From contig NZWR01000004.1 in the NCBI GenBank assembly GCA_002698305.1, forward strand, positions 4,347-68,346: DNA of 64,000 nt, read 5' to 3'. Origin of the DNA: Candidatus Campbellbacteria bacterium. GTDB lineage: Bacteria > Patescibacteriota > Minisyncoccia > Phycocordibacterales > UBA1006. The notes beneath the pieces are model-generated. The model did no database searches, had not been told where the DNA came from, and was given only the letters and a program-made list of their open reading frames with translations. Position numbers and translations under genes: made by a program. Positions 12,370-57,551 of this stretch are shown here, piece by piece. Numbering within the stretch: position 1 is the first letter of the stretch; every line of letters starts with the position of its first letter.

Positions 12370-12370
12370 A

Positions 12371-15490: not shown

Positions 15491-15543
15491 ATCACAACTA
15501 TACCATCTGGTGATGTATTTTTCTATACAACAAAAAAAACCTT

Positions 15544-33106: not shown

Positions 33107-35092
33107 CTACGATAGATAAGTATTGGTAAAGTTTTGAATATCCATAATAGGGATATCAAGTTCACGTGCCTTAACAAGCTTTGATCCTGCCTTGTTCCCA
33201 GCAAGAACAAAACTTGTTTTACTACTTATGGATGACGTCACCTTACCTCCTCTCCTAGAAATAATTTCCTTTAACTCATCCCTTGAGAAGTTTTCAAAAC
33301 TTCCCGTAATTACTACGGTAGTATCATCAAGGCTAGTATCAATGGTCTCATCCTTCTGTTCTAGTTGTATATGTGTGAGTAGATGAGTTATTATTTTTTG
33401 AGTCGCATCGTTATGAAGATAATCATATAACGAGCGAGCTGTCTTTTCTCCGATTCCATGAATTGCCGCTATTTCTTTTAGGGTTGCATTCATTAGTTCA
33501 TCTACGGTAGTAAATGCTTGCGCTATTAATACAGCAGCTTCTCCTCCAACATGACGAATACCAAGCGCGCGAAGTATAACGTGAAAGGGTCTTCTTTTGG
33601 CTCGGTTAATTGCAGAGATAATATTATTTACAGACTTTTCTTCAAATCCCGGAAGTTTTTTAATCTCTTCTGCCTTAAGAGTATAAAAATCAGCCGGTTC
33701 AGTAATAAAACCTTGATCGTAAAAAAGTTCAACTATTTTTTTTCCGAGCCCTTCAATATCCATTCCATTTTTTGAAGCAAAGAATATTAACTGCCTTTTC
33801 TTTTGGATGACATTATCACCCTTAATATATACATGACTGACTCCGTTTTCAGATGTCTGTGTATGGATCGTGTAGTCGTTTTCTAAAGCCCATGCCTCTA
33901 CATCAATAGGTTTCTCAGAACCATCTCGTAATTCCTTAAGCACTGCCGTTATTTTAGGAATAATATCTCCCGCTTTTTCAAGAATAACCGTATCACCTAC
34001 CTGTAAACCTAAGCGTTCAATCTCGTCAAAATTATGAAGCGTAGCTCTTTGAACCAAAGAACCATCAACCCTAACAGGTTCAACATTTGCAACTGGGGTA
34101 ACAACTCCTGTTCGCCCAATCTGGAACCTTACTGAAGTAACACGAGTTGTTACACTTTCAGCTGGGAATTTATACGCAATAGCATATCGTGGCCCCTTTG
34201 CTGTGTATCCAAGCTGTTGTGCTATTTTTTTATCGTTGAGCTTAATGACCATACCATCGATTCCATATGGTTGATCACTGCGCTTCTCTACCCACGACTC
34301 ATACCATGACTGAATTTCATCAAGCGAAGATGTTACAAGGTAATCGTTATTTACATTGAAACCTTGTTTCTTGAGAAAATTGAGTTCATCAATGTGGTAA
34401 TCAAAAGATTTACTATCTGAATTCAAGTCATAAAAATATGTCGTAAGATTTCTTTTTTTGACTTTATCGCTATCAATTTGCCTTAAGGTACCTGCAGCTA
34501 AATTTCGTGGATTCGCATAGATTTTCTCATTTTTTAACTTCTGTTTTTTATTGATAACTATAAACTCTTCTTTTGAAATCCAAGCTTCTCCAATACATGA
34601 AATATACTCAGGATCAGATATTGTATGAGGAATATCATTAATCGCCTTAATATTATCAGTAATTTTCTCACCTTGAACACCATCACCTCGAGTTGCACCA
34701 TACAAAAGCTTTCCATGTTCATAATCTACAATAACCTTCAGACCATCTATTTTTAATTCGCACACATACTCAAGAGCTGTACGTATATCAATACCAGCTC
34801 TTCTTTTTAATTTTTTATCCCACGCAACAAGTTCTTGAAATGAAAAAACATTATCAAAAGACCACTGCCGATAGCGGTGGTCAACTTTCTCAAAATTACG
34901 ACTCGAAGATGCTCCAATGCTAGAAAATTGCTCTTCCTCACTTGCCACCATATGGTTATAGCGTTCAACCAAACTATCATAGGCAGTGTCGCTTATCTCT
35001 GGTGCGTCCTGATCGTGATACAACTTGTTATGTCGCTCTATTTCCTGGCGCATTTTTTGAATCATATCTTTTTTTGTATCTTTTTGATTCAT
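33107..35092 (-). CDS. ligA: NAD-dependent DNA ligase
   Basis: 661 aa. Adenylation motif CELKIDG, OB fold, HhH repeats and a C-terminal BRCT (VVITGSF..SR.ELK). Confidence 0.95.
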   Translation of the reverse strand: MNQKDTKKDMIQKMRQEIERHNKLYHDQDAPEISDTAYDSLVERYNHMVASEEEQFSSIGASSSRNFEKVDHRYRQWSFDNVFSFQELVAWDKKLKRRAGIDIRTALEYVCELKIDGLKVIVDYEHGKLLYGATRGDGVQGEKITDNIKAINDIPHTISDPEYISCIGEAWISKEEFIVINKKQKLKNEKIYANPRNLAAGTLRQIDSDKVKKRNLTTYFYDLNSDSKSFDYHIDELNFLKKQGFNVNNDYLVTSSLDEIQSWYESWVEKRSDQPYGIDGMVIKLNDKKIAQQLGYTAKGPRYAIAYKFPAESVTTRVTSVRFQIGRTGVVTPVANVEPVRVDGSLVQRATLHNFDEIERLGLQVGDTVILEKAGDIIPKITAVLKELRDGSEKPIDVEAWALENDYTIHTQTSENGVSHVYIKGDNVIQKKRQLIFFASKNGMDIEGLGKKIVELFYDQGFITEPADFYTLKAEEIKKLPGFEEKSVNNIISAINRAKRRPFHVILRALGIRHVGGEAAVLIAQAFTTVDELMNATLKEIAAIHGIGEKTARSLYDYLHNDATQKIITHLLTHIQLEQKDETIDTSLDDTTVVITGSFENFSRDELKEIISRRGGKVTSSISSKTSFVLAGNKAGSKLVKARELDIPIMDIQNFTNTYLS

Positions 35093-35099
35093 GGTAAAT

Positions 35100-35699
35100 T
35101 TAGCTGTTATCTTGAGTATACGTGATACTTATTCTTCTTTCTACAAGACGTGGATCATTGAAATCAGGGAAAATCATATCCCCACTGTTGGTACCATTAT
35201 CATCGACACACACATTAAAACCAACAGCAGTCACGCGAACGTGAACGAGTGCTGGATTTAAATTTGATCTTAAGTTTTTTTCAATTAACGCATACGCACA
35301 CCCACCTTCTGCTTCTTGATTAAGGTATCTCATAACATACGGTGTCGTATACAAATCAGTTCCTCCACTTTCTGATAAATGATAAGAATTGACCGTTCCG
35401 TTTCCGCATGAAAATGATCGTGGTTCTCTACTTCCAGGTGCAGGAGTTGGACTAAAGGGAGTAACTGGATTTGGTGAACCAATACCCTTAAGATCAACAT
35501 ACAAAGCACATTCAAGTGTGGCATCAGCAGCATAGAAGGCAAGCTGTGATTCCCTTGATGACGATGATAGAATTGATGATTTCTGCGTAACATTAAAAAT
35601 TCCTACTGCCATTAGCAAGATAAGTGAAGAAATAAGCACTGCAAAAAGAATAACAAAGCCTTTTTTGTCGCTATTCAATTTTTGATATGTTATAGCCAT
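35100..35699 (-). CDS. PilX-like minor pilin/pseudopilin (hydrophobic N-helix, no canonical cleavage motif)
   Basis: MAITYQKLNSDKKGFVILFAVLISSLILLMAVGIF. Last gene of the minor-pilin run; it overlaps the upstream gene by 10 nt. Confidence 0.4.
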   Translation of the reverse strand: MAITYQKLNSDKKGFVILFAVLISSLILLMAVGIFNVTQKSSILSSSSRESQLAFYAADATLECALYVDLKGIGSPNPVTPFSPTPAPGSREPRSFSCGNGTVNSYHLSESGGTDLYTTPYVMRYLNQEAEGGCAYALIEKNLRSNLNPALVHVRVTAVGFNVCVDDNGTNSGDMIFPDFNDPRLVERRISITYTQDNS

Positions 35700-36229
35700 A
35701 AATATAAATCTTGGGCGTAGGATACTGAACCTCCTGACCACTCAACAAAGACCTCCATAATAATTTCATCTGGATTAGAGCCGAGTTGATTAAGAGTTAT
35801 TCTGCGCGTGAACGCTGTATCCTCATATCCCGTTCCAGGGTTATCATTCACAAATTGTTTATAATCTCTAAAATTAGGGTGGTAAAAGACTTCACATGAA
35901 TTACATGGCCTTAAGGTAATGTCACTTCCTGAGAGAATAAGTGAGCAATTCCCACCTGAAGAAAGGCAATTATCTTGATCAAAAATATCATCCCAAGTAG
36001 TACTTTCATTCACTAGAACAAGTTGAGTGTCACGAATATTCCGAGCACCCTCTACTGCTTCTAGAGCCAAATACTCAGCAATAACCTGATTCTGTGACTC
36101 TCGTGACGACTTCAGCCCGCCAGCAGCAATATTCATAAGGGCCACCAGTGCAAGTGTAAAAATAAATACAGCCACCATCATCTCAATCATCGTAAAACCT
36201 TGTTTAGTTGTATTAAAATTATACATCAT
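35690..36229 (-). CDS. Type IV minor pilin (prepilin-type N-terminal cleavage/methylation motif)
   Basis: KQG|FTMIEMMVAVFIFTLAL. Confidence 0.7.
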   Translation of the reverse strand: MMYNFNTTKQGFTMIEMMVAVFIFTLALVALMNIAAGGLKSSRESQNQVIAEYLALEAVEGARNIRDTQLVLVNESTTWDDIFDQDNCLSSGGNCSLILSGSDITLRPCNSCEVFYHPNFRDYKQFVNDNPGTGYEDTAFTRRITLNQLGSNPDEIIMEVFVEWSGGSVSYAQDLYLWL

Positions 36230-36798
36230 ATATTTAATGTTCTCTGGGAAACAAGTGTCTGTACTACCGTTGAAACTTGGTCGGTATCACGGACATCATG
36301 ACCTGCTAAGGTTATCCAAACTCTTGGTTGTCTATTGTTTCCGCTCGGGGTTTGGCTATTACCGCTTATAGTAAATGATAATTCGTCAATTTGTACTGAA
36401 GTACTATCAGTTAAAGAAAATGTTCCGTTTAATCGAGGAATACTTGCCCCTGACCTATCAAGAACCACGGCCCCGCCACTGAGTGAATAGCGAACTTCCC
36501 CCCTATTATCTGTTGCATCAAAGGTGATCTCATTATTTGTACCATCCCCTGAGCCAATTCCGTCATAGCCATAATTCTTACCAAGTCTAATTTCACGCAC
36601 CATTGTATCAAGGGCATAATTGAGAGCTTGATTAAGATTTTTCTGTTGTTGGGTTTTTTGATATGAATCAAGAATAGTGACAAGTGCACCAATCCCAGAA
36701 GTAATAATAATTGCAAAAATAGCAACAGATACAATGATTTCAACCAAAGTAAATCCTTTTGTTGTGTTTTTCTTTTTATTCATACTCTCTTTTTGCAA
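36226..36798 (-). CDS. Type IV minor pilin
   Basis: TKG|FTLVEIIVSVAIFAIII. 4-nt overlap with the next gene. Confidence 0.7.
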   Translation of the reverse strand: MQKESMNKKKNTTKGFTLVEIIVSVAIFAIIITSGIGALVTILDSYQKTQQQKNLNQALNYALDTMVREIRLGKNYGYDGIGSGDGTNNEITFDATDNRGEVRYSLSGGAVVLDRSGASIPRLNGTFSLTDSTSVQIDELSFTISGNSQTPSGNNRQPRVWITLAGHDVRDTDQVSTVVQTLVSQRTLNI

Positions 36799-37441
36799 TT
36801 ATCCTCCCTGCTGCGGTTACCTCTACATAGAAAGAAACTGATCCATCATTGACGAGTATAGAAGCAAAATCAAAAGTTGTTGAAGGGTTTCCATTAATAC
36901 TTATAAAGGCTTCTGAATAAGGTCTCTGAAAAGCTATGAGTACTGGGTCAGTAACAATATTCCCGCAGTTTGGTGCATTATCACACAAATCAATACCAGA
37001 AATAGATATGCCTGAAGCAATAACTGATCGCTCATCAATCACCCTATCTCCTCCGCTTTGATACACAAAGTTTCTGTTAATATCCTCAAAAATAATCATG
37101 CTATTTGATGCTGGTTCTATATATACCCCTCGTACCGCTCGGTCATCGGCGATATTTGAAATCTCATCATTAAATCCAAATAAGTCATCAGCGTTTGTTC
37201 CTGTGTCGAGTTCCTCGTTACCAATATTTCTATCTGACGACGCGATTCCGTACACCTGAGCTTGTCGTATCGTTAGCGCAACATCTTGAGCCACATTTGT
37301 TTTTTTAATTTCATCTCGGTACTGGTTATAGTTAAAAATTGAAACACCAGACATAATCGAAAAAATAGTGAGCACTACGACGAATTCGATAAGTGAGAAT
37401 CCTTTATTATTTTTTATCTTAGATCTTAGTAATTGTTTCAT
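36776..37441 (-). CDS. Type IV minor pilin (FimT/GspH-like)
   Basis: NKG|FSLIEFVVVLTIFSIM. Confidence 0.7.
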   Translation of the reverse strand: MKQLLRSKIKNNKGFSLIEFVVVLTIFSIMSGVSIFNYNQYRDEIKKTNVAQDVALTIRQAQVYGIASSDRNIGNEELDTGTNADDLFGFNDEISNIADDRAVRGVYIEPASNSMIIFEDINRNFVYQSGGDRVIDERSVIASGISISGIDLCDNAPNCGNIVTDPVLIAFQRPYSEAFISINGNPSTTFDFASILVNDGSVSFYVEVTAAGRIIAKREYE

Positions 37442-38268
37442 AGTGTAAATAAATTAAGTGTAGTTATTACCACAAGCCATGTGCCCAAAATAAGAAATGG
37501 AGCAAATGGAACCTCTGCCTTCATTATACGGGTATTAGAACCGAGCAGCAATCGTTTGCTTGATATTTTATTCACTATCATAATTATTACAGCGTAGGCT
37601 GCCCCTGCCCAAAATGAAAAGATAACAGCACTAAAGCCTGCGGAGACACCTAACAACAAACCAATACCTACCATAAGTTTTGGGTCACCCAGCCCAATAA
37701 GCTTTCCTTTTGAAAAAAGCCAAATTAATGCAAATGGAAGCGGGACGATAATCCCAGCAAGTACATGCATCCAGTCAATCGCTAAAGCTGTTGAAAGAAC
37801 AAAACCAGCATCGAAAAAGAAAATACTTAGGAAGGAGAGGAACCCGAAAGCAAGCGAAAGACTGTCAGGAATTATTTTATGTCTTAGATCGTAGAGCAAA
37901 ATAATAACAAGGATACTAAATAACAGAGAGAGGAAAATCGTTCCTATAAGATAAGAAAATGATAGAACATTAGCTATATCATAAAAGAATGCTCTGAACG
38001 CAATACCTGCAAAAAGCAATCCTGTCGTAAGTTCTCCAAAAACATACATTGGACTAATTTTACTTTTACATGACCGACATCTTCCTTTTTGAAAAAGCCA
38101 AGAAAAAACTGGAAATAATTCATACCATCGCAGCTGATGCCCACAGGAATAGCACCCGGAACGACCCTCAAGACTTTTACCAGTATTAAAACGCAGCGCA
38201 ACAACGTTTAAAAAACTTCCTATTAAAAAACCAAGGACACCCCAAATAATTGTAAAAGGAACTAGCAT
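37438..38268 (-). CDS. pilD: Prepilin peptidase / N-methyltransferase (A24 family)
   Basis: 276 aa, polytopic. CysxxCys pairs CYSCGHQL..CRSCKSKI and conserved Asp-containing TM segments. Confidence 0.85.
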   Translation of the reverse strand: MLVPFTIIWGVLGFLIGSFLNVVALRFNTGKSLEGRSGCYSCGHQLRWYELFPVFSWLFQKGRCRSCKSKISPMYVFGELTTGLLFAGIAFRAFFYDIANVLSFSYLIGTIFLSLLFSILVIILLYDLRHKIIPDSLSLAFGFLSFLSIFFFDAGFVLSTALAIDWMHVLAGIIVPLPFALIWLFSKGKLIGLGDPKLMVGIGLLLGVSAGFSAVIFSFWAGAAYAVIIMIVNKISSKRLLLGSNTRIMKAEVPFAPFLILGTWLVVITTLNLFTL

Positions 38269-38274
38269 ACACTG

Positions 38275-38910
38275 TTATTGATTGTTCGTACTTCTAAAAT
38301 CGTATAGTCCCCAGTCATCATCATCTTCAGGATTGGCTGAGCCAAAATCATTATTCGACCCCTGACATCTTTGGGCATCGGTTCCTCCTGGCCGTAGTGC
38401 CTGCCTATCTTCAAAATCATGATCATCATTAAGATATATCGACCTATCTTCTCCTTTTTCAATTGCATGCTCAAGCTCAGTACCTATATGGTATTCATAA
38501 CATGGTCCGCCAAGGCTATCTGAGAGTGCCGCATAGAAAAATCCTTCAGGAGTAATTGATCCCGAGTCGACAAGTCCAGCCGATACTGTTTCAAAACCAT
38601 CCGGTAACTCAGGTAGTGTTGGTAGTTCGGCTATTACGTCACCTAAACTAAAGGGTTGACCATTGAGGGTACAGGTACCAAATTTTGCATTGTTAGCACT
38701 GAGATCTAGCTCATTTGGATAGGCATTACAGATGCGACGATATTCTTCTAATGCAAGTCGCACTTCATCAATTCCTGCTACCCGTAGATTTTCACGTGAA
38801 TTCTTTTTAGTATCTCCGAGGCTTGCTAAAACCATCGTCAGCAATATTGCAATTCCAGCTATTACCACCATAAGCTCAACAATAGTAAATCCTTGTTTAT
38901 TATTTCTCAT
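38275..38910 (-). CDS. Type IV pilin (second, larger pilin)
   Basis: KQG|FTIVELMVVIAGIAILL. Confidence 0.75.
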   Translation of the reverse strand: MRNNKQGFTIVELMVVIAGIAILLTMVLASLGDTKKNSRENLRVAGIDEVRLALEEYRRICNAYPNELDLSANNAKFGTCTLNGQPFSLGDVIAELPTLPELPDGFETVSAGLVDSGSITPEGFFYAALSDSLGGPCYEYHIGTELEHAIEKGEDRSIYLNDDHDFEDRQALRPGGTDAQRCQGSNNDFGSANPEDDDDWGLYDFRSTNNQ

Positions 38911-38948
38911 GGCTTGATTATACCAGATAGATCATTAAATTTCTGCAT

Positions 38949-38973
38949 AAAAAAAACTCATATAGATGAGTTT
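38949..38973 (-). terminator. Terminator after pilA
   Basis: aaactcat-atag-atgagttt, with a T-run on the minus strand. Confidence 0.65.
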
Positions 38974-38982
38974 AATTTAAGC

Positions 38983-39384
38983 TTAACAAGATGTTCCTGT
39001 TGGTGCTGCTGCTTGATCTAGTTCTCCTGCAAACCCTGTTGAGTCAGCACAGAAGAATACTGTGTTAGTACCAGCTTTGTTCATTTGAGATTGGATCATG
39101 AATCCATTAGCATCGTCTGTACAAGTAGCTGTTCCTGGTGAATCTGCTGTAGCAGATGCTACGATAGCAACAATTTGTGAATCTGTACAAACTGCGTCGT
39201 AGTTTCCATCATTAACTGCAACAAGTTCTGCTTGCGCTCGTGACGCTGAGATTGATGCTGAGATTGATGAATCTCGAGCTGAATCTCGAGCTGAACCTAG
39301 TGATGTAAGAACAATTGCTGATAGAATTCCGATAATCGCAATCACAACAAGAAGTTCAATAAGAGTAAATCCTCGTTTTTTCAT
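38983..39384 (-). CDS. pilA: Major type IV pilin
   Basis: 133 aa, MKKRG|[19 protein letters not shown], with a C-terminal Cys pair. It has its own promoter and terminator. Confidence 0.8.
39245..39292. repeat. Two adjacent 12-bp tandem duplications inside pilA
   Basis: gctgagattgat x2 followed by gaatctcgagct x2. Together they encode [17 protein letters not shown]. Confidence 0.9.
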
Positions 39385-39452
39385 TTCTGTAAAAAGTTAA
39401 ATAAATAATAATAAATAACCGAAATTCCTTCTTCTCAGAATTGGTTAACTTT

Positions 39453-39482
39453 ATTATAGCAAAGACCTATATAGATTCACAA
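39453..39482 (-). promoter_or_regulatory. Candidate pilA promoter
   Basis: On the minus strand: TTGTGA, 18 nt, TATAAT, about 65 nt upstream of the pilA ATG. Confidence 0.4.
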
Positions 39483-39584
39483 TTTTAGTGTATTGACATA
39501 GTTAATTATTAGTTGTGATTCAATTATGTACAATAGATGGTCTTATCAAAACACAGCGCCTGAGGATGATCATTTAAAAAAATA

Positions 39585-39607
39585 AAACAAGTCAACATGA
39601 CTTGTTT
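39585..39607 (-). terminator. Terminator after pilC
   Basis: aaacaagtca-aca-tgacttgttt, with a T-run on the minus strand. Confidence 0.65.
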
Positions 39608-39612
39608 ATAAT

Positions 39613-40818
39613 TTAAATATTTCCCGCAACACTGTAAATTGGAATCATCACTGACATGAGGAGACCTCCAACTCCAAGTCCAAGCAGAATAATCATAGCA
39701 GGCTCAATTAATCCAATCAAAGTGTCAACCGCACCTGTTACTTCTTTGTTATAAAAGTTCGCAAGGGTCTTAAGAATTTTACCAACTGACCCAGTCTCTT
39801 CTCCAACCTTAATCATTTGCACCATAATCTGAGGAATCTCTTCGTGCCTATCAAAAGCACTTGAAAGACTATTACCTCCTTTTACCTGCTCAACAGCGTC
39901 TTCAAGCACCTCTTGGAATACTTTATTCCCAACAACGTCCCCCGCAATTTCAAGCGTTCGTACGACTGGGATACCTGAGGTCAACATCGTATTGATGTTA
40001 TCTGAAATACGTGCAAGATAAATTTTTCGGTACAGATTACCAAAACCAGGAAGACTGATCTTTAATCTATCAAACCACGCACGCCCTGATTCAGTAGCAA
40101 GAACACGCCCAATAGCAGCTCCGGCCACTACCACCAAAATAAGAAGTACCCATCCGTAGTTAACAAAAAAATCAGAAATACCGAGGGTAACCTTAGTATA
40201 GGCTGGAATTTCACTTCCTTGCCCTTCGAGGATTCCTGCAATCTGAGGAATTACCTTTACCAACATAAGAATCATGACTCCAATGAAGGTAGTAATAATA
40301 AATGATGGATACACCAAGGCATTTTTTGTTTTAGAGGTGAGCGCGTAACTCCGCTCAAGGTAATCAGCCAAGAAGATAAAGGTCTCGGTTAACTGCCCTG
40401 ACTCTTCTCCTGCTCGAACCATATTTACATAGAAGTTAGAAAAGACCTTTGGCTGTTTTGCCATGGCTCCAGAAATTGATGTTCCTCCTCTAATATCATC
40501 CGTCACTTGGGCGAGTGCTTTTTGAATACCTTTACTTTCAGAGTTTTGCCCCAATAGCTCAAAGGTTTTCACCGCTGAAACTTGCGCTTCAAATAATGTT
40601 GAAGCTTGTTTTGACATTAACACAATGTCTTTCATCTTTACCCCCCCTAAAAATGGAATATCTCCCCCGAAAATACCTCCTTGTTTATCAGGAACGACTG
40701 ATACGACAACATATTCACGACGTTGGAGTGTTGCAACAGCAATCTCACTTGAGGCTGCTTCAATTTGCCCTTTTTTTTCTTGCCCCTCTTTGGTGACAAC
40801 TTTGTAGTTAAATAACAT
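39613..40818 (-). CDS. pilC: Type IV pilus platform protein PilC
   Basis: 401 aa with two T2SSF-type repeats and three TM segments. Confidence 0.88.
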   Translation of the reverse strand: MLFNYKVVTKEGQEKKGQIEAASSEIAVATLQRREYVVVSVVPDKQGGIFGGDIPFLGGVKMKDIVLMSKQASTLFEAQVSAVKTFELLGQNSESKGIQKALAQVTDDIRGGTSISGAMAKQPKVFSNFYVNMVRAGEESGQLTETFIFLADYLERSYALTSKTKNALVYPSFIITTFIGVMILMLVKVIPQIAGILEGQGSEIPAYTKVTLGISDFFVNYGWVLLILVVVAGAAIGRVLATESGRAWFDRLKISLPGFGNLYRKIYLARISDNINTMLTSGIPVVRTLEIAGDVVGNKVFQEVLEDAVEQVKGGNSLSSAFDRHEEIPQIMVQMIKVGEETGSVGKILKTLANFYNKEVTGAVDTLIGLIEPAMIILLGLGVGGLLMSVMIPIYSVAGNI

Positions 40819-40825
40819 ATGACAA

Positions 40826-41884
40826 TTATATCATTGAATCGAGTAATTTAGGATTAAGTGAATGCTGATAGGCCTGATCAACAGTAATATGACCTCGTTC
40901 AACAAGATCAATAAGTGATTTATTCATATCAATCATTCCCTTTTCACTTCCTGTTTCAATCACGGTGTTAATTTCATGGGTTCGTCCTTCCCGAATAAGA
41001 TTTGCAACTGCTTTAGTGTTAATCATAAGCTCGTATGCTGGAACCATTCCACCACGCTGTGATTTAAGTAATCGTTGTGAGAAAATTCCAATTAATGAAC
41101 CAGCTAGTTGTGCTCGAACCTGATTTTGTTGATTTGCTGGAAACGAATCAATGATTCTATCAATTGTTTGTGCCGCGCTATTGGTGTGGAGTGTTGAGAA
41201 CACAAGGTGTCCTGTCTCGGCAGCCGTTACTACCGTGTTGATGGTTTCTGAGTTTCTCATCTCTCCTACCATGATAACGTTTACATCTTGCCTAAAGACT
41301 GCTTTTAATCCCGTTTCAAATGACAAGGTGTCAATACCAACCTCTCGTTGATCAATAATTGATTGATCATCTTTGAAAATATATTCAATAGGGTTTTCAA
41401 TAGTAACAATATGTTCTTTGCGGGTTTGATTAATCATCGAAAGCATAGCCGCCATAGTCGTTGATTTTCCTTGTCCAACAGGACCTACCACCAAGAAGAG
41501 CCCTTGTTCTTTTTGGGTAAACTGATTAAGAATTTCAGGTAGATTCAGTTCACTCATTTCACGAACTTCTTGAATAACCCTAAATGTTAAGTTAATTCCC
41601 CCACTCTGAACATACGCTGTTGAACGAAGGCGCAGCTCGTCATGGAATGAATATGAAAAATCAATTTCCTCAAGATTCATAACCTTAGTGAGTTTCTCCT
41701 CATTTACAATCTCCTTAAGAATACCAAAGGTATCTTCTTTACTTAATACTTCCCTGGCTTCAAGAGTAATTAATTCACCTTCAACACGCATAATAGGTTT
41801 TCTATTAGGTGATAAATGAAGATCAGAGGCATTCTCTCGTTCAACAGTTAGTAATAAATTTTCAAGTAATTGTTTATAGTTCAT
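40826..41884 (-). CDS. pilT: Type IV pilus retraction ATPase PilT
   Basis: 352 aa. Walker A GPVGQGKSTT and PilT-type AVANLIREGRTHE. Confidence 0.85.
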   Translation of the reverse strand: MNYKQLLENLLLTVERENASDLHLSPNRKPIMRVEGELITLEAREVLSKEDTFGILKEIVNEEKLTKVMNLEEIDFSYSFHDELRLRSTAYVQSGGINLTFRVIQEVREMSELNLPEILNQFTQKEQGLFLVVGPVGQGKSTTMAAMLSMINQTRKEHIVTIENPIEYIFKDDQSIIDQREVGIDTLSFETGLKAVFRQDVNVIMVGEMRNSETINTVVTAAETGHLVFSTLHTNSAAQTIDRIIDSFPANQQNQVRAQLAGSLIGIFSQRLLKSQRGGMVPAYELMINTKAVANLIREGRTHEINTVIETGSEKGMIDMNKSLIDLVERGHITVDQAYQHSLNPKLLDSMI

Positions 41885-41887
41885 ATA

Positions 41888-43606
41888 TTATAATTCGTTA
41901 ATTTCACTAAACGGAACTTCTTTATCTAAACCTTTCAGAATAGCAGCTTCTTTTAGGGTGATCATTCCTTTTCTTCGCGCTGCCTGATAAATATTTTGTT
42001 CTGTTGGGTCATTTAAAATGATATTCTCCATTTCTTTATCAACCTCATACATTTCAAGAATCGCAGCTCGACCAGACATCCCGTTCGGTGCATCTTTAGT
42101 TGGTTGAACGGTGTACAGATTTCTATCAAGATCATATTTTACTTTATGTTCTTCAGGCATATCTGCAAATTGTTCTTCAATCATTTTCTTAACACTCGCC
42201 TCTTCTTTAACAGGTACTGCTGCTCCTGGTGCAATTCTACGAAGTAATCGCTGAGCAACACCTAAAATAAGAGTAGGAGCAATAAGGTATGGATCAACCC
42301 CCATATCCACCAGACGCGGAATAATACCGAAGGAACTATTGGTGTGGAGTGTCGCGAATACCAAGTGACCAGTCAGCGCTGCCTGAATAGCAAGATTTGC
42401 GGTTTCTTTATCACGAATCTCCCCCACCATAATTACATCTGGATCCTGACGCACGATACTTCGCAATCCTTCAGCAAAGGTATACCCAATATCAGCACGC
42501 ACCTGAGATTGGTTTACCCCCGGGAATTGATATTCAATTGGGTCTTCAAGAGATACCACATTCTTTGTATCCCTATCCACCTCTCCAAGCATCGAATACA
42601 GCGTGGTGGTCTTACCTGATCCAGTAGGTCCAGTAATAAGAATCAGTCCATGCGGTCGATCAATTGCGTACCGAATCATTCGCTCCTGTTCTTCTGAAAG
42701 GCCAAGCTTATCTAATTTTCTAATTCCTTTTTGAGAATCCAAAACACGAATTACTACTTTTTCACCGTGATAGGTAGGCATAATAGAGACACGAAATGAG
42801 ATTTTTCTTCCTTCAATAATTGCCTGAAAACGTCCATCCTGAGGCTTTCTTCGCTCATCAAGTTTCATCGATTTCGTCATAATCTTGATGCGAGCTACCA
42901 CCGCTGCATGAGTAGCCTTCGGCACCTCAAGAAATACTGACAGCTGTCCATCGATTCTAAATCGAACCTTCACATCTTCACCAGTGTGTTCAATGTGAAT
43001 ATCTGAAGCATTTTCAGCTACTGCATGCTTGATAATAGCTGCAACCATTTTAGTAATCGGGGCATCTTCTTTAATAGTCTCACCTTTTGAAGGATCTGCT
43101 TGCTGGTCTTCTTCTGGAGTCTGAGGGATATCTATGTCAACATATTCGTGAACCACATCACTTACCTGACCTGAAAGCCCAGAGTAGCTTTCCATAATGG
43201 TTTCATACCCATGCTCAGTAATCGCATACATCTCATAGGGTATTCCTGTTTCAGCAGTAATAAACTGCAGAACATTTTGAGCCTCGATATTTCGAGGGTT
43301 AAGCATTCCAACCTGCAGAATACCATCTTCCGTCTTACCAAAAGCAACCATTTGATACGTGCGTGCGCTGTCTTCCGGAATTAGTTTTACAATATCATCA
43401 TCTACTTCGTTGTAATCAATTTGATATTTCTTGAGACCGAAGTAACTACTTTTTGCATCTAAAAGAGCCTGGTCATTAATTCCCATTTCTTTAAGAATCT
43501 TCTCAATCGTTAAATTTTCTTTTGTTGTGCGTTCTACGATTTCATCAATTTGATATCTATTGATGAGCCCACGTTCCACCAGACTTTCAAGGAAATTCAT
43601 AATCAT
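41888..43606 (-). CDS. pilB: Type IV pilus assembly ATPase PilB (GspE family)
   Basis: 572 aa. N-terminal T2SSE_N-like domain and Walker A GPTGSGKTTT. Confidence 0.88.
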   Translation of the reverse strand: MIMNFLESLVERGLINRYQIDEIVERTTKENLTIEKILKEMGINDQALLDAKSSYFGLKKYQIDYNEVDDDIVKLIPEDSARTYQMVAFGKTEDGILQVGMLNPRNIEAQNVLQFITAETGIPYEMYAITEHGYETIMESYSGLSGQVSDVVHEYVDIDIPQTPEEDQQADPSKGETIKEDAPITKMVAAIIKHAVAENASDIHIEHTGEDVKVRFRIDGQLSVFLEVPKATHAAVVARIKIMTKSMKLDERRKPQDGRFQAIIEGRKISFRVSIMPTYHGEKVVIRVLDSQKGIRKLDKLGLSEEQERMIRYAIDRPHGLILITGPTGSGKTTTLYSMLGEVDRDTKNVVSLEDPIEYQFPGVNQSQVRADIGYTFAEGLRSIVRQDPDVIMVGEIRDKETANLAIQAALTGHLVFATLHTNSSFGIIPRLVDMGVDPYLIAPTLILGVAQRLLRRIAPGAAVPVKEEASVKKMIEEQFADMPEEHKVKYDLDRNLYTVQPTKDAPNGMSGRAAILEMYEVDKEMENIILNDPTEQNIYQAARRKGMITLKEAAILKGLDKEVPFSEINEL

Positions 43607-43652
43607 TTACATTGTAACAAAAAAAGCACGTGTTGAAACGTACTTAGCTCTA

Positions 43653-44120
43653 TTATACTTGAGGAATATCACTCTGCCCTCCGGTATCTGTTGTCCCGGC
43701 GCTTCCAGAGCTACCAGCACCTCCCGATAGACTTGAATCAGGAAGCGTTTCATTTTGGAATTGACTATTTGCCGCAAAGTCAAAGCCAATAGGGAGAAAC
43801 GGGTTTGGCCGTCCAGCAGGGCCTGGAGCTGGAATCCTAAACCGACTGTCTTCGAGCATAGCAAAGACTGGATTTGAAAAAATTTCATCATCCAAAGCAA
43901 TAGTTCTGATATTACCGAGAATGCGGAGAATATCAGCATTTGCAAGCTGTGTGTCTGTTTCTTTAATTTGTCCGTAGGTATCTGAATTTACGATAGAACT
44001 CAATGTACCACTATCTGTTGGAACATCAGGGTTACCATTTACAAACGCATACCCAGCTACAAGCACTATTGCCACAAAAAGTCCGATAATAATATTTCTT
44101 ATTGTTTTCTTATTTTTCAT
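43653..44120 (-). CDS. Hypothetical TM-anchored protein within the pilus operon
   Basis: 155 aa with an N-terminal TM helix and a G/S/T-rich tail. It occupies the slot between pilO-like and pilB. Confidence 0.4.
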   Translation of the reverse strand: MKNKKTIRNIIIGLFVAIVLVAGYAFVNGNPDVPTDSGTLSSIVNSDTYGQIKETDTQLANADILRILGNIRTIALDDEIFSNPVFAMLEDSRFRIPAPGPAGRPNPFLPIGFDFAANSQFQNETLPDSSLSGGAGSSGSAGTTDTGGQSDIPQV

Positions 44121-44133
44121 AGTAGTGGCTCTT

Positions 44134-44691
44134 TTAAATGTTATCTTTTAACCAGTAAGTATCAACGGTGATATCAAAGCTAAATGATGTTGTTGAATCT
44201 CCATTAGGTGAAATATTGATAGCTTTGATATCAGTTATGCGAAGATTTTTTTCTATATCTTTTAAGAATAAAATAAAATCTTGATAATCACCTTCGATAG
44301 TAAAATCAAGTGTTACCACCCCGTAGTCATTAGTCTCTACGTCGAAGCTTGTATTTTGTGAATCATCTTCCTCCTCTTTGTCTGCAGCAGCTGCAGCAAT
44401 TTCAAGGTTTCTCCGCCCTGCAATTTGCTCAAATTCTAAAATTAACCGAACATTATCTGCTGAGTCAGGGATAAGTTTTTCAAGACGAGCTATATCAACT
44501 GCTTGTAGAGCTTGCTCTTTTTCAAGAAGATCATCTCGTAATGCCCGCAACGTTCGTGCATTATCAAGAACATCATCAAGCTCTGAACCTTTTGTCTGAA
44601 GCTCTTGTACTTCAGCATACTGAGGTTGAACAACGAGAACGAAGGTCGCTATTGACACCAGGGTTACAATTATTGGAATAATATTTTTCAT
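44134..44691 (-). CDS. pilO: PilO-like pilus assembly protein
   Basis: 185 aa with an N-terminal TM helix and a coiled coil (AEVQELQTKGSELDDVL). Synteny after the pilN-like gene. Confidence 0.45.
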   Translation of the reverse strand: MKNIIPIIVTLVSIATFVLVVQPQYAEVQELQTKGSELDDVLDNARTLRALRDDLLEKEQALQAVDIARLEKLIPDSADNVRLILEFEQIAGRRNLEIAAAAADKEEEDDSQNTSFDVETNDYGVVTLDFTIEGDYQDFILFLKDIEKNLRITDIKAINISPNGDSTTSFSFDITVDTYWLKDNI

Positions 44692-44703
44692 AATAACAAT
44701 CGA

Positions 44704-45402
44704 TTAATTAGTAAATGCTCCGAAGTTAATGTCTTCTCCTTCTTGAAACTGATCACCGTTATTATCAATTTCAATAATAGCTGAATCAGGTACGATAATA
44801 TCTGATTCATCTCTATCATTTGACTGACCAAAGATAAGGAGTTCTGGATTTACGGTGAAATCTAAGCTGAATGATATTCTTCCTATATCAGTTTTTGCAA
44901 AATCTTGGAAGATATGATTTTGAATATATCGGTTGTCTTCGTAAATATCAGATTGCTGGGCAATTTGAAGATATCCACGTGCTTCACCTGAAAGAGACAC
45001 AGTGGATCCTTCTGGATCATATTCAAAAGATAAATCATTGAAGCTTACATCAGGCAGTGTAGATGCAGCAAATGATTCTAGAAATCCTGAGACGGCGATA
45101 TGCCTTTCCAAAAGTTCAGTTCCCGCTTGTAAACGGATATCGAGCTCTTTGAGTTTCAATATTGCTTGTGGTTCAAATTCACGTTCTACCGAATTAATAT
45201 CTTCAATATCTGCCTTGATTGATTCTGCAACACTAAATTTATATACATACACAACAGCTGTTGAAATAATAGCTACGATAAAAAGAAGAATAGACAAAAG
45301 ACTAAAGAGACTTCTTCGTGATTTTGATTTTACACTTTCAGTTTTTGGAACACTGGAAAGGTTCTTTTTTGGTATAAACGTTGTTTTAAATTCTTTATCC
45401 AT
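44704..45402 (-). CDS. pilN: PilN-like pilus assembly protein
   Basis: 232 aa. Short cytoplasmic N-terminus, one TM helix, periplasmic-type domain. Directly follows pilM. Confidence 0.45.
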   Translation of the reverse strand: MDKEFKTTFIPKKNLSSVPKTESVKSKSRRSLFSLLSILLFIVAIISTAVVYVYKFSVAESIKADIEDINSVEREFEPQAILKLKELDIRLQAGTELLERHIAVSGFLESFAASTLPDVSFNDLSFEYDPEGSTVSLSGEARGYLQIAQQSDIYEDNRYIQNHIFQDFAKTDIGRISFSLDFTVNPELLIFGQSNDRDESDIIVPDSAIIEIDNNGDQFQEGEDINFGAFTN

Positions 45403-45424
45403 ATTAAATAATACTTACTAATAA

Positions 45425-46537
45425 CTACTCAAGTCCCTGTAATGCTAATCCCGTCGCCACTGCAAATTCTGGTCCCGCCTGCCGCAAGACGTCTTCCAGA
45501 AACTCTGGAGATAATGCCTTACTGAAAGGGTTTGCATGTACGGTATTAATATTAAATCGTGCCTCTATAGTAGGTTGAATGTTTTTTAAGAGAGCACCTC
45601 CTCCGGTCAAAATAATTTTACTAATTGGCTTTTTGTATTCTTTTTCAAAATCAAAGATAACATTTTTAAGTTCAGAGAAAATATACTCTGTTCCGACCTC
45701 AATAACATTATAAGCTTCTGAGTTTGTTGCACTTTTATCAAGCCCTATTTCTCTCTTCATTGCCTCCGCTTCTTTAAAAGGTATCTCAAAAGATTTCTGA
45801 AGTGATGAAGAAATATATGCTGAACCTCTACTGATTGCTCTAAATTTTCTAACAACCCCATGCTCAACAATGCTCATACGTGTTCCTGAAGCTCCTAAAT
45901 CAATAATCATGACAGGTGATAATTCATGCTTTAGTGAGCCACGAAGTGCACTAAAGGTTTCAATTTCATATTGAATATCATTAAAAGAAAGAGATTTAGA
46001 AACGGTATTGTATCGGGTTACTACCTCATTTCGAACCGCTGCAACCAAAACATCAATGGTACTATCTTTTGATGAACCAGAGTGGTCATCACTATATGAT
46101 TCATTTTTCGGAATCATCCAATAATCAAGCGAAACTTCTGTCAGTGGTACAGGAATATATTTACGAGCTTCGTTTTGAATGACTCCTGATAATTCACGTT
46201 GGCTTATTTGTGGAACCTTGAGAATAAAAATAAGACTGGTTGCTGAAGAAATAGAGATCAAGGCGTTCGTAGCTGTTACGTTAGCCTGACTTAGTAAATT
46301 TTTAATCGCCTTGGTTAGTGGTTCAATTTCAAGGTTGGTCAATTCACCTGCTACCCCATCTTCTTTTTGATATGGACCCAAGGCCACTTCACCATAGGTA
46401 TCAAGAAGAATTCGCCCCTTTTCTTTTTTTAGTTGAACAACCTTAATGGCTGAAGAACCTATATCAATCCCGACGAAGCTATCTTTTTTTGAGCCTAAGC
46501 CGGAAAATGCTGACTGAAGGCTGTCTAATATACTCAT
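45425..46537 (-). CDS. pilM: Type IV pilus assembly ATPase-like protein PilM (actin/HSP70 fold)
   Basis: 370 aa, FVGIDIGSSAIKVVQLKKEKG..IIDLGASGTRMS. Confidence 0.85.
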   Translation of the reverse strand: MSILDSLQSAFSGLGSKKDSFVGIDIGSSAIKVVQLKKEKGRILLDTYGEVALGPYQKEDGVAGELTNLEIEPLTKAIKNLLSQANVTATNALISISSATSLIFILKVPQISQRELSGVIQNEARKYIPVPLTEVSLDYWMIPKNESYSDDHSGSSKDSTIDVLVAAVRNEVVTRYNTVSKSLSFNDIQYEIETFSALRGSLKHELSPVMIIDLGASGTRMSIVEHGVVRKFRAISRGSAYISSSLQKSFEIPFKEAEAMKREIGLDKSATNSEAYNVIEVGTEYIFSELKNVIFDFEKEYKKPISKIILTGGGALLKNIQPTIEARFNINTVHANPFSKALSPEFLEDVLRQAGPEFAVATGLALQGLE

Positions 46538-46580
46538 GAAAAAAGTATACCATACTTAACCCATGGTAAAATAGTGTGTA

Positions 46581-47198
46581 ATGAAAAAAGTATTCATATA
46601 TATGTATCGTTTTCTTTTTCCAAGTCCGTATACAGCGACAACTCTTAAAACTATCCCCCTCGCGCCTCAGCCAAATCTTGATTGGCTCTATAGTTTGTAC
46701 AGCTATCATTCTACTATGGGAAGAAAATTATTATACGATTTTAAAAGAAGAAAGGATCTTGTTCGCGACTACAATTTGGCTATTGAATTAGCAGATTCAT
46801 TGAAGGAGATCTTGTCAGAAAAACAGCAGTATGGATATTTTCTACATCCAATAATTATCACCGTACCTTTGTCGAAAATGTCTCGTAAGGAACGTGGTTT
46901 CCATCAAGTCAAGATACTTGCTCGATATTGTGCGAACATTATTGATGCCATGTACATACACAAAGCTGTAAATACAACTAGAGCTGTTCAAAAGCAAGCA
47001 CTTCTTAGTAAAAAAGAGAGGTATAAAAATGTATATAAAGCTTTTGAAATTAAACAAAAGTACATAGAACACATTGCTTATAAAGATGTGCTTATTCTTG
47101 ATGATATTATTACAAGTGGTGCAACCATGGAAGAAATACGAAGAGTTCTTAAAAGTGCAGGAGCACGAGAAATAATAGGCGTATCTATTGCGCACTAA
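46581..47198 (+). CDS. comF: ComF family protein (phosphoribosyltransferase domain)
   Basis: 205 aa. PRTase motif VLILDDIITSGATMEE. Divergent from pilM. The N-terminal zinc-finger region is not evident. Confidence 0.7.
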   Translation: MKKVFIYMYRFLFPSPYTATTLKTIPLAPQPNLDWLYSLYSYHSTMGRKLLYDFKRRKDLVRDYNLAIELADSLKEILSEKQQYGYFLHPIIITVPLSKMSRKERGFHQVKILARYCANIIDAMYIHKAVNTTRAVQKQALLSKKERYKNVYKAFEIKQKYIEHIAYKDVLILDDIITSGATMEEIRRVLKSAGAREIIGVSIAH

Positions 47199-47632
47199 TC
47201 TCTATGATATGGGTGATTGTTTTGTATGGTTTTTGAACGGTAGAGTGCTTCGGTGAGTATTAGCGTTGCTATGTCATGCGGATAGGTTAAGCGAGAAAGT
47301 GAAATCATAAGGTGAGCATCTTTTTTAAGATCTTCAGTGTGACCATCTGGTCCACCAATAATAAAAAATATATCGCCATATACTGATTCTAAATGAGTAA
47401 TTTTATTAGATAATTCACGTGATGACAAAAGATCTCCAGCTTCATCAAGTAATACCATAACACCACCGGAAACTTTCTTTCTTATTAACGCATCTACTGC
47501 TGATGCTTTTTTTTGGGTAATCTCATGAATACTAATCTTAGAAAATCGAGATAGTCGCTTGATATATTCACCTATACCCTGTCTTGCGAAAGGAAGTTCT
47601 GGTGAGCCAACGGTTATGATGTGTAGTGCCAT
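47195..47632 (-). CDS. rlmH: 23S rRNA (pseudouridine1915-N3)-methyltransferase RlmH
   Basis: 145 aa SPOUT protein, IIGGPDGHTEDL..LSLSRLTYPH. Confidence 0.88.
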   Translation of the reverse strand: MALHIITVGSPELPFARQGIGEYIKRLSRFSKISIHEITQKKASAVDALIRKKVSGGVMVLLDEAGDLLSSRELSNKITHLESVYGDIFFIIGGPDGHTEDLKKDAHLMISLSRLTYPHDIATLILTEALYRSKTIQNNHPYHRD

Positions 47633-49329: not shown

Positions 49330-49722
49330 TTATGACTCGTAGCTCCCCCTTAAAACCTGCTCCACATGATCAACTATTTTTTTTAATTTTGTTGATGATT
49401 TAACAAAAAATGAAACAGGATTATTTTCAAAAACGGTTTTTGCTACATTCTTTTCAGCCAAACTAAAGTTCGTAAGAATAACCACCTTAGCATCTTTCCC
49501 CCAATCATCTTTACGTAATTCAACAAGAAACTCTTCACCACTCATAACCGGCATCAAAAGATCAAGTAAAATAATATCGGGCTTCACCTTAAGTGCATGT
49601 TCAAGCCCTTCCTTGCCATGATAGGCTTGAATAATTTCCCATTGAGGGCCGTCAAACGCGGCCGCAAGAGCGTTATTTAATGATGCTTCATCTTCAATTA
49701 TTAAAATTGTATTTTTTTTCAT
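49330..49722 (-). CDS. Stand-alone response-regulator receiver domain (CheY-like)
   Basis: 130 aa. ILIIEDE, phospho-acceptor context DIILLDLLMP, ILTN and FVKS are all present. Confidence 0.8.
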   Translation of the reverse strand: MKKNTILIIEDEASLNNALAAAFDGPQWEIIQAYHGKEGLEHALKVKPDIILLDLLMPVMSGEEFLVELRKDDWGKDAKVVILTNFSLAEKNVAKTVFENNPVSFFVKSSTKLKKIVDHVEQVLRGSYES

Positions 49723-49734
49723 AATAGTTGTTGA

Positions 49735-50535
49735 TTAGTGACTACTTACTCGCTTATCTGAATAATGATGATCAAGTATTACATTAAGATGTTTACCTGA
49801 TATCTCGTGATACTTTTGCATAAGCACTGGGATAATATCTACAATAGGTGCAGAAATTTCTAGCACATGCTCTCCATCATCACTCATACGCAGCCCCGGT
49901 ATATTTTTACTAATTCTCTTGATAGCATCGTCACCAACATGATAATGAAGTTCATGAATAATACCGTGAATAATTTCATAGTAGATACGTTCATCTTCAG
50001 AAACATGTGTGTACGTGGTTGGCCCATGTTTTTGTGTGAATATAGATTTTTGTAAGAAAATCACAAGAAGCACTATTACCAATAGAATAAGTAGTGCATT
50101 AATCCAATGAGTAATAGGATATCCAAAAGCCTTCCGCACCACAACAAAACCGCTTTCAGACAATGCTGGGAAAATTTGACCTTGGTAGCGTACATCAACA
50201 GAAATAGAGTAATCACCATAAGGAAAATCATTTGGAATAATAATATCCCGATTAAATGAAGCTGTTGTCTCAACCGCAACCGTTTCGGTCGTTCTAAATA
50301 ATTCAGCTCCATTTTCCTTATACGTAATACTATATACAAGGGTTGCGTCAACCCGCTCATTTGGGGTACCAAAGTTTACCAACTGTATTTCAACGGGCAA
50401 TTCCTCCCCTCTTCCAATTTCTGTAATCCGCAATTCACCAGCCGAGAAGACTTTTGGTTCTGTTTGAGCATACCCATTACCTGCAACAATGAAGGTTAGT
50501 GCACATATAAAAATGTAGAGTAATTTATTTTTCAT
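49735..50535 (-). CDS. Hypothetical secreted/membrane protein
   Basis: The start is taken at MKNKLLYIFICALTFIVAGNGYAQ (signal peptide). It has a beta-rich ectodomain, one TM helix and a His-rich cytoplasmic tail. Confidence 0.45.
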   Translation of the reverse strand: MKNKLLYIFICALTFIVAGNGYAQTEPKVFSAGELRITEIGRGEELPVEIQLVNFGTPNERVDATLVYSITYKENGAELFRTTETVAVETTASFNRDIIIPNDFPYGDYSISVDVRYQGQIFPALSESGFVVVRKAFGYPITHWINALLILLVIVLLVIFLQKSIFTQKHGPTTYTHVSEDERIYYEIIHGIIHELHYHVGDDAIKRISKNIPGLRMSDDGEHVLEISAPIVDIIPVLMQKYHEISGKHLNVILDHHYSDKRVSSH

Positions 50536-57410: not shown

Positions 57411-57484
57411 TGCGCCTATAGCTCAATTGGCTAGAGCGCCGAGCTTATTCCTCGGATGTTGGGGGTTCGAGTCCCTCTGGGCGT
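57411..57484 (+). tRNA. tRNA with anticodon TAT (nominally Ile) and a non-canonical anticodon loop
   Basis: Acceptor GCGCCTA/TGGGCGT (G1:U72 wobble), perfect stem CCGAG/CTCGG, loop CTTATTC (U37, C38), T-arm GGGGG-TTCGAGT-CCCTC. Confidence 0.6.
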
Positions 57485-57551
57485 ACTAAAAATTTTAGAA
57501 CATAACGCGTTGCGTTATGTTCTTTAATTTTCTACGCCCAGAGGGACTCGA
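57465..57551. repeat. 87-nt near-perfect palindrome built on the 3' end of the tRNA(UAU)
   Basis: The 20-nt ttcgagtccctctgggcgta (57465-57484) recurs as a perfect inverted copy at 57532-57551. The centre is a 12-bp hairpin at 57496-57522. Confidence 0.9.

Follow-up and report, generated by a model that had tools for sequence, protein, structure and literature searches.

The 64,000-nucleotide window analyzed here, a stretch of contig NZWR01000004.1 (positions 4,347 to 68,346 of the forward strand; GenBank assembly GCA_002698305.1) from a Candidatus Campbellbacteria bacterium, carries a type IV pilus (T4P) locus without a secretin gene. The pil genes form an unbroken cluster on the minus strand from 46537 down to 35100. 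They comprise pilM, a divergent pilN, pilO, the gene for a membrane protein of 155 amino acids (aa), pilB, pilT, pilC, pilA, a second pilin gene, pilD and four minor pilin genes, and comF lies divergently next to pilM (Table 1). This gene set had been proposed in the initial annotation, which was made from the nucleotide sequence alone. The open reading frame (ORF) listing and profile searches confirmed it; all ORFs were present at the coordinates proposed, and the family assignments stand. GenBank entries MAQ77099-MAQ77103 and CL684_01020, from a Tara Oceans Candidatus Campbellbacteria metagenome-assembled genome (MAG), were found to be 100% identical to window proteins, and the public annotation of each identical entry checked is "hypothetical protein."

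Table 1. Genes and predicted transcription signals of the pilus locus and its flanks (positions count from the first nucleotide of the window; E-values unless bits are given).
Feature	Position	Strand	Evidence and remarks
pilM	45425-46537	minus	PF11104 1e-38; TIGR01175 158.6 bits (cutoff 133); cytoplasmic, actin-like ATPase fold, alignment subcomplex
divergent pilN, 232 aa	44704-45402	minus	orthologs, position, anatomy
pilO	44134-44691	minus	PF04350 1e-7, over gathering score
155-aa bitopic membrane protein	43653-44120	minus	family without Pfam entry, here in Patescibacteria genomes only
hairpin + U-tract, possible partial terminator	43624-43645	minus	between 155-aa gene and pilB; -12.1 kcal/mol, z -2.6
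pilB, extension ATPase	41888-43606	minus	GspE/PilB family, PF00437 1.9e-114; MshEN-type N-terminal domain, PF05157 2.4e-6
pilT, retraction ATPase	40826-41884	minus	TIGR01420 405.6 bits (cutoff 319.1); AVANLIRE motif
pilC, platform protein	39613-40818	minus	PF00482 1.5e-56, two repeats; GspF/PilC NCBIfam models up to 1.3e-100
intrinsic-terminator-like hairpin + U-tract	39585-39607	minus	after pilC; -9.9 kcal/mol, z -3.1
sigma-70-like promoter match	39453-39482	minus	upstream of pilA; TTGTGA-18-TG-TATAAT, 10/12 matches, extended -10
pilA, candidate major pilin	38983-39384	minus	KRG|FTLIE; 4 Cys in head; PF07963 1.2e-9; TIGR02532 38.7 bits
hairpin + U-tract	38954-38973	minus	after pilA; -12.5 kcal/mol, z -4.1
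second pilin, 211 aa	38275-38910	minus	KQG|FTIVE; PF07963 1.9e-5; GspG/GspH N-terminal similarity
pilD, prepilin peptidase/N-methyltransferase	37438-38268	minus	PF06750 (A24_N_bact) 1.2e-28; PF01478 (Peptidase_A24) 1e-9
minor pilin 1	36776-37441	minus	NKG|FSLIE; weakly GspH/PpdA-like; PF07963 1.5e-7; NCBIfam N-terminal matches
minor pilin 2	36226-36798	minus	TKG|FTLVE; weakly GspJ/HpsC-like; PF07963 4.2e-7; NCBIfam
minor pilin 3	35690-36229	minus	KQG|FTMIE; weakly PilV/GspI-like; PF07963 5.4e-7; TIGR02523 1.4e-8, under cutoff
minor pilin 4 (last gene), without Glu5	35100-35699	minus	KKG|FVILFAV; no profile match for window protein; predicted pilin fold
comF, ComFC-like phosphoribosyltransferase-fold protein	46581-47198	plus	TIGR00201 2.7e-25; PF00156 1.5e-7
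ligA, NAD-dependent DNA ligase	33107-35092	minus	flank beyond last minor pilin gene
rlmH	47195-47632		flank on comF side, followed by mscS

The extension ATPase PilB, the platform protein PilC and the prepilin peptidase PilD of a type IVa pilus (T4aP) were all identified by their Pfam families. PilB scored 458.8 bits on TIGR02538 and 461.8 bits on TIGR02533, both under the equivalog cutoffs, and ComG models scored far under the PilB, PilC, GspE and GspF models. PilD shows the CxxC...CxxC and GLGD motifs. The retraction ATPase PilT scored above the TIGR01420 cutoff. The presence of both an extension and a retraction ATPase had earlier been taken to imply a dynamic pilus, and the match of PilB to the T2SSE family together with the PilT score supports this. 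Five pilin proteins carry the N_methyl signature of class III signals (G|F...E5), core minor pilins among them, and the PilM-PilN-PilO module was found as well, its PilN part through orthologs, position and anatomy.

A domain scan of all window ORFs of at least 300 aa and most of those of 110-300 aa detected no domain of a secretin, of PilP, of ComEC or of ComEA, and neither TsaP nor PilF/Tgl was found in the window. The diderm form of the T4aP is recognized by the PilQ secretin and the PilP lipoprotein; both were missing from the scanned ORFs, in agreement with the absence of the two that had been claimed for the locus. We propose that a secretin and PilP are lacking because the fibre has no outer membrane in its way. 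Bacteria of the Candidate Phyla Radiation (CPR) were proposed to lack an outer membrane (Meheust et al., 2019; PMC6744442), and the locus is probably built for an envelope of that kind.

Altogether, the region very probably represents a genuine and complete, monoderm-type, type IVa-like pilus locus on the chromosome of a marine Candidatus Campbellbacteria. A monoderm-type pilus for attachment and/or DNA uptake had been suggested before; this is supported and matches the published picture of Patescibacteria, and it is not novel.

Within the alignment subcomplex PilM was assigned from its profile scores. PilO matched its own family, and a profile built from 40 PilO orthologs matched Myxococcus xanthus PilO (3jc8_O) at 1.4e-8. 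One weak GspM match also falls on PilO (0.0028; 17.3 bits, cutoff 60), while no GspC, GspD or GspL match was obtained among the locus proteins. For the 232-aa protein encoded between pilM and pilO the evidence was found to be of another kind. Its gene holds this position constantly in related loci, and 5 of its 48 syntenic orthologs match the PilN family PF05137 (best 1.4e-5). The protein has a short cytoplasmic N-terminus, one transmembrane (TM) helix, a coiled coil and a C-terminal domain, and the N-terminus carries an FxTxFIPKK motif that is invariant across orthologs (F5, T7, F9, I10, P11, and K12). In PilN an N-terminal peptide of the INLLP type binds PilM, and the FxTxFIPKK motif of this family resembles it. 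Of the earlier pilN-like and pilO-like calls, the second thus stands on direct profile matches, whereas the first lacks one and is backed by orthologs and anatomy. We assign the 232-aa protein as a divergent PilN with moderate confidence. Its positional equivalent in Southlakia epibionticum was classed as EpsM/PilN-like by structure (Wang et al., 2023; PMC10633639).

The 155-aa protein and the product of the last gene had been named as the uncharacterized parts of the locus, which proved to be the correct choice. Both were subjected to structure prediction with AlphaFold2 (AF2), which gave a confident model for the last gene (predicted local distance difference test, pLDDT, of 89) but a low-confidence model for the 155-aa protein (pLDDT 60).

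The last gene had been described as lacking a cleavage motif. This was found to be wrong, as its N-terminus reads KKG|FVILFAV; Gly-1, Phe+1 and the hydrophobic helix are kept, Glu5 alone is missing, and the motif is conserved in 34 orthologs. The orthologs also conserve G14, F15, four Cys and a C-terminal ER..Y. Four minor pilins with a G|F(T/S)xxE motif had likewise been claimed. Three of them carry it (G|FSLIE, G|FTLVE, and G|FTMIE), whereas the fourth is the last gene itself. The likeness of minor pilins 1-3 to GspH, GspJ and PilV/GspI, respectively, is weak and confined to the N-termini. In the AF2 model of the last gene product (predicted template modelling score 0.76) a 59-residue N-terminal helix (13-71) is followed by a six-stranded sheet, which is the "lollipop" shape of a pilin, and the model contains no GspK-type alpha-domain insertion. 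Weak PilX_N matches were seen in 3 of the 34 orthologs (0.0036). A search of the PDB with the last-gene profile found nothing, and Foldseek with the model against the PDB returned no match with an E-value below 0.1, only generic helix-on-sheet matches with E-values of at least 0.12. Most deposited pilin structures are without the N-terminal helix. The positional equivalent of the last gene in S. epibionticum, SEML1_0116, was classed with GspK (3ci0 chain K) (Wang et al., 2023; PMC10633639). Because the protein lacks Glu5, is encoded by the last of four minor pilin genes and has a counterpart classed as GspK, it is best read as a candidate tip subunit of the GspK/PilX type. The otherwise prepilin-like N-terminus, the predicted pilin fold and the conserved last position agree with this.

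The hairpins with U-tracts and the promoter match upstream of pilA, when taken together, suggest from sequence features that the locus is split into four transcription units, i.e., pilMNO with the 155-aa gene, pilBTC, pilA, and the second pilin gene with pilD and the minor pilin genes. A promoter and a terminator of its own had been claimed for pilA. Both a promoter-like match and a terminator-like hairpin are present at the expected sides of the gene. The site upstream of pilA is the joint best promoter match in the region, one plus-strand site likewise reaching 10/12, and the promoter scan overall was not enriched over shuffled sequences (42 sites found and 39 expected). The hairpin between the 155-aa gene and pilB is located within a gap of 46 nucleotides and may determine how many alignment-complex transcripts are made relative to motor transcripts.

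One genome per GTDB species was scanned with the motif of the 155-aa family, which gave 189 confirmed relatives. The scan used a closer homolog set, and synteny was read from the best 80 loci, whose ORFs were compared with the window proteins and which are biased to the exact motif GRPNPF[AL]PI. The order comF (on the opposite strand), pilM, pilN, pilO, 155-aa gene, pilB, pilT, pilC, pilA (one to four copies), pilD, minor pilin genes 1-4, and ligA was found in essentially every sufficiently long locus. The comparison across Patescibacteria that the initial annotation had proposed thereby gave a near-invariant order among the best 80 of the 189 relatives. This gene order points to an ancient pil block whose arrangement the lineage has rigidly kept. 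The genomes of 79 of the best 80 loci are labeled Paceibacterota, Nomurabacteria, Parcubacteria, Minisyncoccia or Patescibacteria, or carry the uninformative label "bacterium." The exception, locus L006 (JBLIKX010000018.1), is labeled "Crocinitomicaceae bacterium" (Bacteroidota); it holds a full Patescibacteria-type locus with a homolog of the 155-aa protein that is 62% identical, and the contig is probably mis-binned.

The gene for the 155-aa protein was located between pilO and pilB throughout the 80 loci, with median gaps of 1 nucleotide to pilO and 7 nucleotides to pilB. The protein consists of an N-terminal TM helix, a low-complexity linker, a helix, the motif F-NPVF..L.D, the segment GRPNPFLPIGFD, and a tail rich in S, G and T. 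It had no match in Pfam, NCBIfam or PDB sequences, and a PDB search with the family profile was likewise empty. An exhaustive profile search returned 2608 cluster representatives (50% identity) at E<=1e-3 and 655 at 1e-10. The listed family members share one architecture, i.e., a basic N-terminus with a TM helix, a low-complexity linker, an amphipathic helix, (D)SIF-x-P-x-F..L.D and GRxNPFxP(I/L)G. Residues G103, R104, N106, P107, F108 and P110 are invariant or nearly so, and the tail after the GRxNPF motif is rich in Thr, Pro and Ser and variable, with a length of 5-137 residues. The family is without description in the literature examined, and in this data it is restricted to Patescibacteria genomes. 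The AF2 model, made with 18 homologs, had only the TM helix and a helix at 56-69 as defined elements, and this outcome suggests a linear-motif protein. As basic residues precede the TM helix, the positive-inside rule places the C-terminus outside. We infer that this is a lineage-specific bitopic protein, with its N-terminus inside and its C-terminus outside, which is made together with PilN and PilO.

What the protein does at this position was weighed between three readings. Our tentative preference, held at somewhat less than an even chance, is a fourth subunit of the PilMNO complex, specific to this lineage, with an outward-facing motif that docks on PilN and PilO. The wider form of this reading, in which the family is, in ultrasmall bacteria without an outer membrane, an obligatory fourth subunit that replaces PilP functionally and perhaps links the machine to the cell wall or S-layer, is also put forward tentatively. 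If the protein is a true machine subunit, it would help to explain how the basal body is completed without PilP and PilQ.

The protein might instead act outside the alignment complex, either as a spacer in the cell wall or S-layer or as an assembly or regulatory factor whose target is the pilins, PilC or the wall at the exit site of the fibre. A variable tail rich in Thr, Pro and Ser is typical of wall-spanning or glycosylated linkers, and the family is without detectable similarity to alignment-complex proteins. However, the simplest explanation of the tight and near-universal adjacency to pilO is that the protein co-assembles stoichiometrically with PilN and PilO, and we regard a role outside the complex as possible, though less likely than not.

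A degenerate PilP, reduced to the N-terminal segment that binds PilN and PilO after loss of the lipid anchor and of the secretin-binding HR domain, appears improbable. The gene position directly after pilO is that of pilP, and the protein is membrane-anchored and faces outward like PilP. GRxNPF also recalls the RSPFQPP stretch that is invariant in the N-terminal region of Pseudomonas PilP, as seen in our alignment. This N-terminal region is reported to be unstructured and to bind PilN/PilO, and the disorder-like AF2 prediction is compatible with such a region. Against this, hhalign of the 155-aa family (61 sequences) to a PilP alignment gave a probability of 0.09% and an E-value of 0.6, and the motifs of the two were not aligned. 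The PilP alignment was rebuilt from Pseudomonas only (its query was checked against PDB 2lc4 and 2y4x) and is narrow, so that this is a weak negative. None of the 61 family members matched PF04351 (PilP), and a Cys, a lipobox and, in the AF2 model, a beta domain are lacking. As a PilP proper the protein was rejected, since only the gene position after pilO agrees. We also rejected a truncated PilN or PilO paralog, for which hhalign aligned the TM helix alone or nothing.

The roles given to the components in the following follow established family knowledge, while family membership and gene order are what was tested here. PilD would cleave and methylate the prepilins at G|F. Cytoplasmic PilM would bind the N-terminal FIPKK peptide of the divergent PilN, which would pair with PilO in the membrane. 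As the proposed fourth subunit, the 155-aa protein would dock on the PilN-PilO ectodomains through its conserved extracytoplasmic helix and GRxNPFxPIG, and would take PilP's place, not PilP's fold. The filament may be primed by the four minor pilins, three with Glu5 and the fourth, GspK/PilX-like and without Glu5, as a tip-type subunit. PilB on the PilC platform would then polymerize PilA, which is probably transcribed separately and strongly, and PilT would depolymerize it, so that the fibre extends and retracts. By analogy with cultivated Saccharibacteria the pilus may serve attachment to a host or surface and twitching. DNA uptake is probably a further function, exercised jointly with ComEC, DprA and the adjacent ComF.

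The initial annotation had described the locus as coupled to comF. The divergent adjacency is real, with start codons 43 bp apart, and about 69 of 82 related loci share it, but the coupling is one of position and the two are not co-transcribed. The ComF of the window has a phosphoribosyltransferase domain, and its TIGR00201 score is under the cutoff of 233 bits. It was found to be without the N-terminal zinc finger with four Cys, having no Cys in the N-terminal region. A CxxC...CxxC zinc finger is kept in 55 of 69 pilM-adjacent ComF orthologs of other Patescibacteria. The zinc finger is also missing in the other members of the window clade, for example in loci L001-L003, L005 and L006. On the other flank, ligA directly follows the last minor pilin gene in most related loci, with a median gap of 8 nucleotides (35 loci). 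This arrangement makes it possible that the gene for this DNA-repair enzyme shares a transcript with the pilin operon.

The adjacency of comF and the position of ligA after the last pilin gene in most loci may be taken to mean that the locus serves competence above all, in functional coupling to ComF, with DNA scavenging rather than attachment or motility as the main role of its pilus. CPR bacteria lack nucleotide synthesis and are enriched in ComEC, which is given for 86% of CPR genomes, and ComF and DprA are reported as well (Meheust et al., 2019; PMC6744442). Transformation in Saccharibacteria is mediated by T4P together with Com proteins (Wang et al., 2023; PMC10633639). In S. epibionticum, however, the syntenic T4P1 genes fall into essentiality class I, comEC, comF and dprA can be dispensed with, and the authors concluded that the essentiality of T4P is unrelated to competence; comEC was dispensable for growth and required for transformation (Wang et al., 2023; PMC10633639). 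In TM7x, T4P-2 mutants had wild-type competence, and T4P-1 is the inferred driver of twitching (Grossman et al., 2025; PMC12206443). In addition, comF is transcribed away from the pil genes and has lost its zinc finger in the window clade, and the ligA adjacency may be plain conserved synteny. We therefore consider it unlikely that competence is the primary function of this pilus.

That the cluster is a type II secretion system (T2SS) or a Com-type pseudopilus, and that no extended pilus is ever built on the cell surface, is highly improbable, since the about equal scores of PilB and PilC on the GspE, GspF and the PilB, PilC models, the match of the pilin N-termini to GspG/H/I/J and ComG models and the T2SS-like number of four minor pilins are set against a bona fide PilT, which T2SS and ComG systems are without, PilM/PilN/PilO in place of GspL/GspM/GspC, the lack of GspD and the thin pili seen by microscopy on CPR cells and in Saccharibacteria (Grossman et al., 2025; PMC12206443; Meheust et al., 2019; PMC6744442).

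Several observations nevertheless weigh against a complete monoderm-type pilus locus with the roles given above. The PilN-like protein of the window had no Pfam or NCBIfam match, the profile of its orthologs found no PilN in the PDB, and its hhalign alignment with PilO was co-linear, weak and not significant (E 0.031). Alignment of the 155-aa family to PilP, PilO and PilN by hhalign gave nothing past the TM helix, and with the low confidence of the AF2 model the docking of this protein is an inference only. The absence of a secretin was read from the scanned ORFs of the window. As far as the sequence goes, ComF is linked to the pilus by position, being divergent and, in the window clade, without the zinc finger. 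Finally, the function of the pilus is carried over by analogy from the Saccharibacteria, which belong to a different class from the Campbellbacteria.

Outside the pilus locus, three minus-strand ORFs with TrbC/VirB2-type T4SS_pilin domains (PF18895/PF04956) were observed at 12010-12411, 12720-13139 and 16033-17337. The product of one of them is 434 aa long with the pilin domain C-terminal, and the ORFs in between (13245-13625, 13629-14993, and 15195-15680) had no Pfam match. These genes may be part of a monoderm-type type IV secretion system, which has reportedly been described for Patescibacteria. At 49330-49722 and 49735-51892 (minus strand), a few kb from the pilus locus, a stand-alone response-regulator receiver gene is located beside genes for two large membrane or secreted proteins; the large proteins had no Pfam family or a weak Big_13 match only. 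A tRNA-Ile with anticodon UAU was predicted at 57412-57486 on the plus strand. The UAU anticodon reads AUA directly, without lysidine modification.

Compared to the diderm T4aP of Pseudomonas aeruginosa and M. xanthus, the locus shares PilM, PilN, PilO, PilB, PilT, PilC, PilD, a major pilin and four core minor pilins, one of them without Glu5. It differs in lacking PilQ and PilP and in having a protein of no described family at the pilP position. The T4P of Gram-positive bacteria such as Clostridium and Streptococcus sanguinis are also of the monoderm type, with PilB, PilT, PilC, PilD, PilMNO, several pilins and no secretin, and their gene order differs from that of the window. We know of no equivalent of the GRxNPF protein described after pilO in these systems.

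The closest likeness in gene order among the systems compared was found to T4P1 of S. epibionticum ML1 (SEML1_0104-0116), which runs PilM, PilN-like, PilO-like, a small ORF, PilB, PilT, PilC, pilin, PilD, three pilins and a GspK-like last gene, with pilT present and a secretin absent (Wang et al., 2023; PMC10633639). This organism belongs to a different class of Patescibacteria from that of the window. Its ORF after pilO, SEML1_0107, encodes 75 aa compared to 155 aa in the window, the two being compared by position only. The last pilin of S. epibionticum has an extra galactose-binding-like domain, and T4P1 is flanked by ychF and an integrase gene, not by comF and ligA. SEML1_0107 is essential, and if it is a homolog, the 155-aa family becomes directly testable in a genetic system. 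The window also agrees with T4P-1 of Nanosynbacter lyticus TM7x (TM7x_00415-00475) in its set of components, the comparison being one of set, not order. TM7x has two functional T4P systems, of which the pilT-bearing locus is the inferred driver of twitching; T4P drive twitching and host binding in Saccharibacteria, and the PilX pilins of T4P-1 are without a predicted PilD signal (Grossman et al., 2025; PMC12206443).

Secretin-less T4P clusters have thus been described in Patescibacteria before and studied there by experiment, and the present instance had simply gone unannotated. The co-localization of PilB/PilT, PilC, PilM, PilN, PilO, PilD and pilins in CPR bacteria, with PilQ absent, is stated in the consulted portion of Meheust et al. 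(2019; PMC6744442), where the protein with a TM helix and GRxNPF is not singled out as a component of the locus. What is new here is that this protein is seen as a very large, syntenically fixed family, and that the nature of the last gene is corrected. Identification of the locus is useful for annotation and leaves the current picture unchanged. T4P are among the few machines on which the ultrasmall episymbiotic Patescibacteria appear to depend, and the same 14-gene pil block reaches the marine Campbellbacteria and the Paceibacteria almost unchanged, where it is also flanked by comF and ligA.

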